Notes under the pieces: generated by a model
Databases searched by the model: none
Told to the model about the DNA's origin: nothing
Seen by the model: the letters and a program-made list of their open reading frames with translations, nothing else
From: Candidatus Bathyarchaeota archaeon
GTDB taxonomy: Archaea; Thermoproteota; Bathyarchaeia; 40CM-2-53-6
Assembly (NCBI GenBank): GCA_963733055.1
Contig: CAVTBR010000003.1
Location: 160,001-224,000 of the forward strand
DNA length: 64,000 bases
Reading direction: 5' to 3'
Shown: one piece after another, positions 2,492 through 49,429 of the stretch
Layout of the letters: every line of letters begins with the position of its first letter
Numbering within the stretch: the first letter of the stretch is position 1
Translations under genes and position numbers: made by a program

Positions 2492-2637
2492 TGGAGCCGG
2501 GGATGGGATTCGAACCCACCTCAGCGATACTACGCTTCTATACTGCGGGTTGCGGCAAGCGTATTCTTCTGCAGCCCGCCGCCTGAACCGTTCGGCATTC
2601 AGTGACCCCTAGACGGAGTCCTAAGGTCAACCCCGGC
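2492..2637 (-). tRNA. tRNA-Cys(GCA) with about 70 nt of intervening sequence, probably three introns; CCA encoded
   Basis: Acceptor GCCGGGG/CCCCGGC-T-CCA (U73); D arm GCC-GAACGGTTCA-GGC; anticodon arm GCGGG-CTGCAGA-CCCGC; T arm GTGGG-TTCGAAT-CCCAT. Inserts at about 2629-2598, 2568-2551 and about 21 nt in the variable region. Confidence 0.82.
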
Positions 2638-49141: not shown

Positions 49142-49230
49142 CTGTATTCCGTACGAAAGAAACCTTCGATCTATTCTAAGCTTGTCCTGTTCTGTTGAGG
49201 TTTATTCGCAAATAACTCGATTGAGTCCAA

Positions 49231-49245
49231 CGAAATGTTAAGATA
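49231..49245 (+). promoter_or_regulatory. Putative BRE/TATA of tRNA-Gln
   Basis: CGAAATG-TTAAGATA about 28-35 nt upstream of the tRNA 5' end. Confidence 0.5.
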
Positions 49246-49272: not shown

Positions 49273-49429
49273 AGCCCGGTGGTGTAGTGGTCAAACCACG
49301 CACGTGGGACTATGCATAGCATTGGCGCCAGAAACCTGCCACTAGACGGCTCTGGATCCCCTCACCGAGGAGAAACCTGCCGACGGGAGAGGCCAAGCGC
49401 CCCGAATTCGAATCTCCCCCGGGCTACCA
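49273..49429 (+). tRNA. tRNA-Gln(CTG) with four introns (21/22, 29/30, 37/38, 53/54); CCA encoded
   Basis: Exons 49273-49294, 49314-49321, 49348-49355, 49375-49389 and 49407-49429 join to a 76-nt cloverleaf: AGCCCGG TG GTGTAGTGGTCAAGCAT A GCAGG CTCTGGA CCTGC CGAC GGGAG TTCGAAT CTCCC CCGGGCT ACCA. Each junction has a BHB-like motif. Confidence 0.9.

Follow-up and report, generated by a model that had tools for sequence, protein, structure and literature searches.

Multiple-intron tRNA genes are reportedly known from the Thermoproteales (Pyrobaculum, Thermofilum and Caldivirga) through the work of Sugahara et al. in 2007 and 2008. Splicing endonucleases of the alpha/beta crenarchaeal type accept relaxed motifs at non-canonical positions. 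The accessible sections of two peer-reviewed papers give a maximum of three introns for the tRNA genes of Thermoproteales (PMC4033280; PMC8450103), and those of one of them describe related introns at different sites in the same group (PMC4033280). [quoted passage not shown] Introns interrupt 92-95% of the tRNA genes in three Asgard genomes, as stated in the part of PMC11291895 that is at hand. The original prediction for the locus described here assumed that archaeal tRNA genes carry up to three introns. The two papers, in the sections cited, agree with that figure, and the Asgard preprint exceeds it. A literature search on tRNA introns in Bathyarchaeia or Bathyarchaeota gave incidental matches, and no description for the class was found among the matches listed.

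Here we describe a locus in a 64-kb window, by which we mean the whole stretch of DNA analyzed (positions 160001-224000 of contig C3). The source genome (G000) measures 2.88 Mb in three contigs and is 96% complete. The sequence of the locus identifies it as a tRNA-Gln(CUG) gene interrupted by four introns of the BHB type. It very probably serves an uncultured Bathyarchaeia archaeon as its functional tRNA-Gln(CUG) gene, apparently the only one, and its transcript would be spliced by EndA and RtcB.

The gene occupies window positions 49273-49429 on the forward strand, and its 157 nt are divided into five exons and four introns. Exon 1 (49273-49294, 22 nt) contains the acceptor 5' strand, U8, the 5' strand of the D stem and the D loop (tRNA positions 1-21). 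It is followed by intron 1 (49295-49313, 19 nt), which lies at 21/22 and has the central helix GGTC/GACT and the inner helix CCAC/GTGG. Exon 2 (49314-49321) is 8 nt long and consists of the 3' strand of the D stem, position 26 and positions 27-29 of the anticodon stem. Intron 2 (49322-49347, 26 nt) lies at 29/30 and has a relaxed motif, in which ATAG/CTAG makes three of four pairs and the inner helix has five. Exon 3 (49348-49355), also of 8 nt, covers positions 30-37 with the anticodon CTG at 49352-49354. Intron 3 (49356-49374, 19 nt) is at the canonical site 37/38, its central helix is CTCT/GGAG and its outer helix is the anticodon stem. The boundary of this intron can be moved one base in the 3' direction without altering the spliced product. 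Exon 4 (49375-49389, 15 nt) spans positions 38-53, that is the 3' strand of the anticodon stem, the 4-nt variable loop and the 5' strand of the T stem. Intron 4 (49390-49406, 17 nt) interrupts the gene at 53/54 with the central helix CGGG/CCCG and an outer helix of three pairs. Exon 5 (49407-49429, 23 nt) holds the T loop, the 3' strands of the T stem and the acceptor stem, A73 and CCA. All features are on the forward strand. The gene is neither split nor permuted, with its five exons collinear inside the 157 nt.

Each of the four central helices is flanked by two 3-nt bulges. With G-U pairs counted, the central helices of introns 1, 3 and 4 form four of four pairs, and intron 2 is of the relaxed form. 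The inner helices of introns 1 to 4 have 4, 5, 2 and 1 pairs and the outer helices 0, 2, 2 and 3, and every intron thus has a flanking helix of at least two pairs. These coordinates, intron sequences and helices, bulges included, agree with the original prediction in every detail. The positions 21/22, 29/30, 37/38 and 53/54 that it had assigned are likewise right, given a D loop of 9 nt and a variable loop of 4 nt. It had also described two exons of 8 nt in a gene made up of intron for more than half its length, as is the case for exons 2 and 3 and for the 81 of 157 nt (52%) that are intron.

Excision of the four introns in a script leaves 76 nt that fold into a cloverleaf and are called as tRNA-Gln(ctg) by ARAGORN. 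The stems in this call have 7 (acceptor), 4 (D, two of them G-U), 5 (anticodon) and 5 (T) base pairs. U8, U33, a T loop and A73 are all present in the product, its D loop has 9 nt and its variable loop 4 nt, and its CCA is encoded in the gene. The pair A1-U72 is present together with A73, and we take both to be identity elements of glutamine tRNAs.

The unspliced gene was expected to escape standard scanners, and it does escape two of them. ARAGORN finds no tRNA anywhere in the raw 64-kb window. The Rfam tRNA model gives no match to the locus at gathering thresholds, and nothing tRNA-like appears at E<=10 in the 401 nt around it. A resolver, blind to the original prediction, was written that lists every candidate intron fitting the bulge-helix-bulge geometry and tries all combinations of them, five introns at most, in search of a cloverleaf. 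In this geometry the exon contributes four bases and then two bulged ones ahead of the cut, and the 3' end of the intron has the mirror image. At least three of the four central pairs and a flanking helix are demanded. The top solution at the locus, with a score of 21.75, has the same four introns as the original prediction.

The resolver also returns alternatives, and these are one ground for a reading in which the gene is real and its architecture differs in detail. An unexcised block might persist as an enlarged loop, or a boundary might be moved (to 38/39 in place of 37/38, for instance, or through displacement of intron 1 or intron 3). Nine solutions exist for the locus and several lie within 0.25 of the best, one of them with a shifted intron 3 and the anticodon AGA. 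The mobile boundary at 37/38 and the relaxed motif of intron 2 leave further room for such variants. The alternatives have weaker central helices (3/4 pairs), and the homologous genes of relatives, described below, speak against them. We regard this reading as improbable.

A search at the DNA level found matches in 36 of 40 relatives (37 of 41 genomes with the source genome included). It covered 22 further genomes of the genus; 16 of them have an orthologous CUG locus, two were matched only through a tRNA-Gln(UUG) gene and four gave no match; these four are 76-93% complete. All 17 loci of the genus, including that of the source genome, have four introns. In their alignment only eight of the 76 exon columns vary, and five of these are alignment effects of a shifted T-arm intron. 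The remaining three all fall in one genome (G022), where the T-stem pair 49:65 shows a compensatory change from G-C to A-T in halves that lie on the two sides of intron 4. Exons 1, 2 and 3 are invariant at all 17 loci. The intron columns vary at 68 of 103 positions. Compared with the source genome, the exons are 98.5% identical and the introns 74.4%.

The intron sequences drift, and the proposed helices are retained. Over the alignment 88.7% of the cells of the intron helices are paired, compared with 38-46% when the partners are slid. Four intron-helix pairs have changes on both sides, a number reached in none of 500 shuffles. Pairing of the central helix is complete (100% of cells) in introns 1 and 3 and reaches 93.8% in intron 4, and the inner helix of intron 1 contains two pairs with compensatory changes. 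Intron 2 is the weakest, with 67% of cells paired in its central helix and 92.5% in its inner helix. In the central helix the first pair (the A:G position) is formed in none of the 16 distinct sequences and the last pair (G-C) is lost in five of them.

The weakness of this central helix explains why the resolver arrived at this architecture and the expected mature tRNA at no more than 12 of the 20 orthologous loci. Four loci (L005-L008) gave wrong alternatives and three (L003, L011 and L012) no solution. At one locus (L010) the CTG solution placed the first intron wrongly and had a product of 74 nt. For these eight the exon blocks were read from the alignment.

At three of the 17 genus loci (those of G016, G022 and G001; L014, L016 and L017) the T-arm intron is at 59/60 and not at 53/54. 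The two versions have a 3' part resembling '...GCCCGAA' in common. This shared part suggests a 6-nt shift of a single intron, and not an independent gain. In one further copy (L003, in G013) CCCGAAT is duplicated and the T loop is three bases longer; this copy may be an intermediate or defective.

Beyond the orthologous loci, the tRNA-Gln genes of the relatives provide natural versions of the gene in which single introns are absent. Every one of the four introns is missing from some homologous gene. The CUG genes of G039 (L018), G031 (L053) and G023 (L064) lack the intron at 21/22, and their exons meet exactly where predicted. The CUG genes of G025 and G037 (L066 and L067), like every one of the 11 UUG genes, lack the intron at 29/30, and L060 and L064 (G038 and G023) lack that at 53/54. 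The canonical intron at 37/38 is missing from the UUG genes of G016 and G013 (L051 and L070) and of G039 (L052). The last of these is an intron-free tRNA-Gln(UUG) of 76 nt that is collinear with the spliced product. A global alignment with the window gene that makes no use of motifs has 73 of 76 identities, with four insertions of 17-24 nt and one 1-nt gap. Two of the four insertions have the exact bounds of introns 3 and 4, and the remaining two deviate by a few bases from the predicted bounds. Across the order the tRNA-Gln genes contain 0-4 introns at eight positions (10/11, 20/21, 21/22, 24/25, 29/30, 37/38, 53/54 and 59/60), and intron positions turn over quickly among relatives.

These comparisons bear directly on a differing architecture. 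The exon blocks that are invariant in 17 genomes match the best solution, relatives without single introns join their exons as predicted, and the intron-free 76-nt relative is collinear.

The original prediction had named common four-intron tRNA genes in relatives among the findings that would count against it. Such genes are indeed common in the relatives; in addition to the 17 genus loci they include two CUG genes (L019 and L020) and three UUG genes (L061, L063 and L069) outside the orthologous set. This makes the gene less unique and does not weaken the reading of the locus.

A putative archaeal promoter lies upstream on the same strand (49229-49245). It consists of a BRE-like AACGAAA followed by the TATA-like box TTAAGATA, which ends 27 nt before the mature 5' end. 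The combination CGAAA-N2-TTAAGATA is found at equal distance in 17 of 17 genus loci in flanks that vary, and is missing in that form from three loci of other families. From established knowledge of archaeal promoters we take it to be a BRE and TATA box. Scans for sigma-70 promoters and intrinsic terminators gave no matches, as expected for an archaeon.

A second tRNA-Gln(CUG) gene was sought in the three contigs of the genome, as the original prediction had advised. Neither such a gene nor a similar exon was found there. Patterns built from exon 1 and exon 5 (up to four mismatches) and from the acceptor strands match the locus itself and otherwise only non-tRNA sequence, at C1:931847, C2:236802 and C3:509092. 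BLAST with four tRNA-Gln(UUG) genes of the genus returned the locus itself and C1:778037, the latter a chance match. Pattern search and BLAST likewise detected no tRNA-Gln(UUG) gene in the three contigs; this gene is present in four genomes of the genus (G016, G013, G012 and G020) with 2-4 introns.

The locus could also be a decaying pseudogene or an unspliceable relic, with CAG codons read by a tRNA made elsewhere. Some features invite this reading, namely the relaxed motif of intron 2 and the aberrant T loop of the copy in G013, and another gene could be missing from an assembly that is 96% complete in three contigs. They are outweighed by the strong constraint on exons as opposed to drifting introns, by the compensatory change in the T stem, by a promoter conserved in all 17 loci, by the failure to find another CUG gene or similar exon in the three contigs, and by the retention of the same design across several families. 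We consider decay very improbable. That convenient deletions made a cloverleaf by chance out of non-tRNA sequence is scarcely credible, since, even though 358 distinct ends gave some solution under relaxed motif rules in a genome-wide scan, the best solution without an ARAGORN call scored 19.75 against 21.75 here, and conservation of the locus across the genus and beyond refutes it.

The preferred reading, a functional tRNA-Gln(CUG) gene, implies a pathway of the following kind. Transcription would start from the conserved BRE/TATA promoter and give a precursor of approximately 160 nt. The two splice sites of each intron would lie in 3-nt bulges flanking a 4-bp helix, in which the final exon bases ahead of the intron pair with the 3' part of that intron, and the motif would be closed by an intron hairpin, an exon helix or both. 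Because each motif lies inside one exon-intron unit, none of the four sites overlaps another, and any order of cutting would be possible. Cutting is expected from a two-subunit EndA of the alpha/beta crenarchaeal type. RtcB would then join the five exons into a 76-nt tRNA with its CCA already encoded. Transcription, cleavage and ligation at this gene, and their order, are what we infer from these features; the anatomy of the gene, its pattern of conservation, the promoter motif and the enzyme genes are seen directly in the sequences.

The genome encodes the enzymes that such a pathway would use. Two EndA paralogues of 185 and 188 aa each contain PF01974 and PF02778. The best PDB matches of the 185-aa protein are 3p1z_B, 2cv8_A, 3ajv_B and 2zyz_B, which we understand to be crenarchaeal catalytic EndA subunits. 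The 188-aa protein is divergent, and lacks the His found in its paralogue in a motif just after a conserved Tyr. This pattern fits a catalytic and a structural subunit. Together with the PDB matches, the two paralogues point to a putative (alpha-beta)2 assembly. The gene for the catalytic-type protein (C3:228623-228877, reverse strand) is approximately 4.6 kb past the end of the window, and that of the divergent paralogue is on contig C1, in the region of 1338756-1338995. RtcB is encoded as well (576.8 bits).

Folding of the precursor calls for caution. Taken as a whole, the precursor has no exceptional stability (z = -0.93), and 34 of 200 shuffled sequences fold equally well or better. A conformation that contains the four motifs together has an energy of -33.7 kcal/mol, or -42.2 with extra pairs, which is 13-22 kcal/mol above the MFE of -55.6. 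Neither the MFE fold nor the z-score supports the set of four motifs. Given this gap, the energy model does not predict that all four are presented simultaneously, and the motifs may form in turn or on the enzyme. The introns themselves are most likely without function, and have probably accumulated because this type of EndA tolerates them.

The same intron load is seen in the other tRNA genes of the genome. The Rfam tRNA model detects only 13 genes. Applied to 2388 acceptor-stem/CCA anchors genome-wide, the resolver gave 31 rows at a score of at least 20.5, all of them tRNAs called by ARAGORN. One row, an alternative solution overlapping the one counted for the Leu(TAA) locus, was excluded, which leaves a census of 30 distinct tRNA genes. 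Two of these genes have no intron, and 8, 11, 6 and 3 genes have one, two, three and four introns. The 60 introns amount to 2.0 per gene. This load is a lower bound. Four of the resolved genes retain implausibly long variable loops and probably hide another intron each, and three genes and five orphan 3' ends fall outside the census. The three genes outside the census look complete (C1:1332833-1332966, C3:367674-367769 and C3:663229-663335).

Two further genes with four introns are predicted in the census. The tRNA-Tyr(GTA) gene (C1:1348212-1348416, forward strand) has introns at 30/31, 37/38, 53/54 and 59/60, all with four of four central pairs, and exons down to 7 and 6 nt. The 6-nt exon makes neighboring motifs share a base, so that their simultaneous formation is probably impossible. 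The tRNA-Pro(GGG) gene (C3:546744-546926, reverse strand) has predicted introns at 15/16, 20b/21, 30/31 and 45/46; its details are less certain, the locus having 52 alternative solutions.

Several other tRNA loci show unusual structures. A tRNA-Cys(GCA) gene in the window (2492-2637, reverse strand; C3:162492-162637) is 146 nt long with three predicted introns at 8/9, 37/38 and 48/49, and is called by ARAGORN after splicing in the script and not in the raw window. In the tRNA-Trp(CCA) gene (C3:707551-707679, forward strand) a 22-nt block at 7/8 separates the acceptor 5' strand from U8, and CCA is not encoded. The five orphan 3' ends (C1:1367991 and C2:407608 on the forward strand; C1:1423416, C3:631607 and C3:527886 on the reverse strand) have an intact T arm, an acceptor 3' strand and CCA. 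No usable 5' half was found within 450 nt of them and the upstream sequence is not tRNA-like. They may be the 3' halves of split (trans-spliced) tRNAs or belong to genes with an acceptor-stem intron. The end at C3:631607 repeats approximately the last 48 nt of a complete tRNA-Val(TAC) gene 1 kb away.

An all-against-all comparison (blastn-short) of 63 predicted introns of the genome showed no similarity between genes, at lengths where such a search has low power. The only matches were overlapping alternative solutions of one locus or 10-nt matches at E 0.01-0.02.

The deficit of recognizable tRNA genes extends to the relatives. In a survey of 121 genomes of the class with the Rfam model, in which at most the best 37 scored candidates per genome were counted, the median number of matches is 12 for the 12 genomes of the family, 18 for the 20 other genomes of the order and at least 32 for the 89 genomes of other orders. 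Genomes of this lineage appear to be without most of their tRNAs, as with the 13 Rfam genes here. Where the tRNA genes are hidden in this way, inferences of completeness and codon usage from tRNA counts go wrong.

The tRNA-Gln(CUG) gene is therefore extreme and not unique, and exemplifies a heavy load of introns throughout the lineage. The resolved genes have about two or more introns on average and several have four. Their exons are as short as 6-8 nt, which is near the smallest size that still allows a splice motif. We think it somewhat probable that the family and its order are a third independent hot spot of extreme tRNA-gene fragmentation, beside the Thermoproteales and the Asgard classes Atabeyarchaeia and Jordiarchaeia. 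If so, the lineage would provide a well-sampled natural series for how introns are gained and moved. The series of 0-4 introns in the relatives and the alternation between 53/54 and 59/60 are material on how BHB introns arrive and move. The gene itself would show how far an EndA of the heterotetramer type lets tRNA genes fragment. Its four introns and two 8-nt exons go beyond the 'maximum of three' found in the accessible sections of the peer-reviewed papers (PMC4033280; PMC8450103).

Comparison with the Asgard archaea, which belong to a different phylum, shows a similar load in a distant lineage. As in the genome described here, most tRNA genes are interrupted, with approximately two intervening sequences per gene, in the accessible parts of the Asgard reports. 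According to the same parts, many D-arm introns of Asgard tRNA genes are missed by software, and gains are repeated with positions that turn over.

The canonical archaeal pre-tRNA has a single intron at 37/38, and intron 3 is of this kind. The central helix of intron 3 is formed by positions 32-35 and the intron, and its outer helix is the anticodon stem. The tRNA-Gln(CUG) gene differs from this arrangement by three further introns (21/22, 29/30 and 53/54) and by its two exons of 8 nt.

The Thermoproteales share more features with the gene. Their introns are likewise short and of the BHB type, occur at canonical and non-canonical sites and are found several per gene. They also have an EndA of the heterotetramer type with broad specificity, as is predicted here, and tRNA genes that are missed by standard scanners. 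Two differences stand out from the accessible sections of the literature on that group. Related introns are found at different sites in the Thermoproteales, in contrast to the 63 predicted introns of this genome, among which no similarity was found. The Thermoproteales have up to three introns per gene, compared with four in the tRNA-Gln(CUG) gene of this Bathyarchaeia archaeon.
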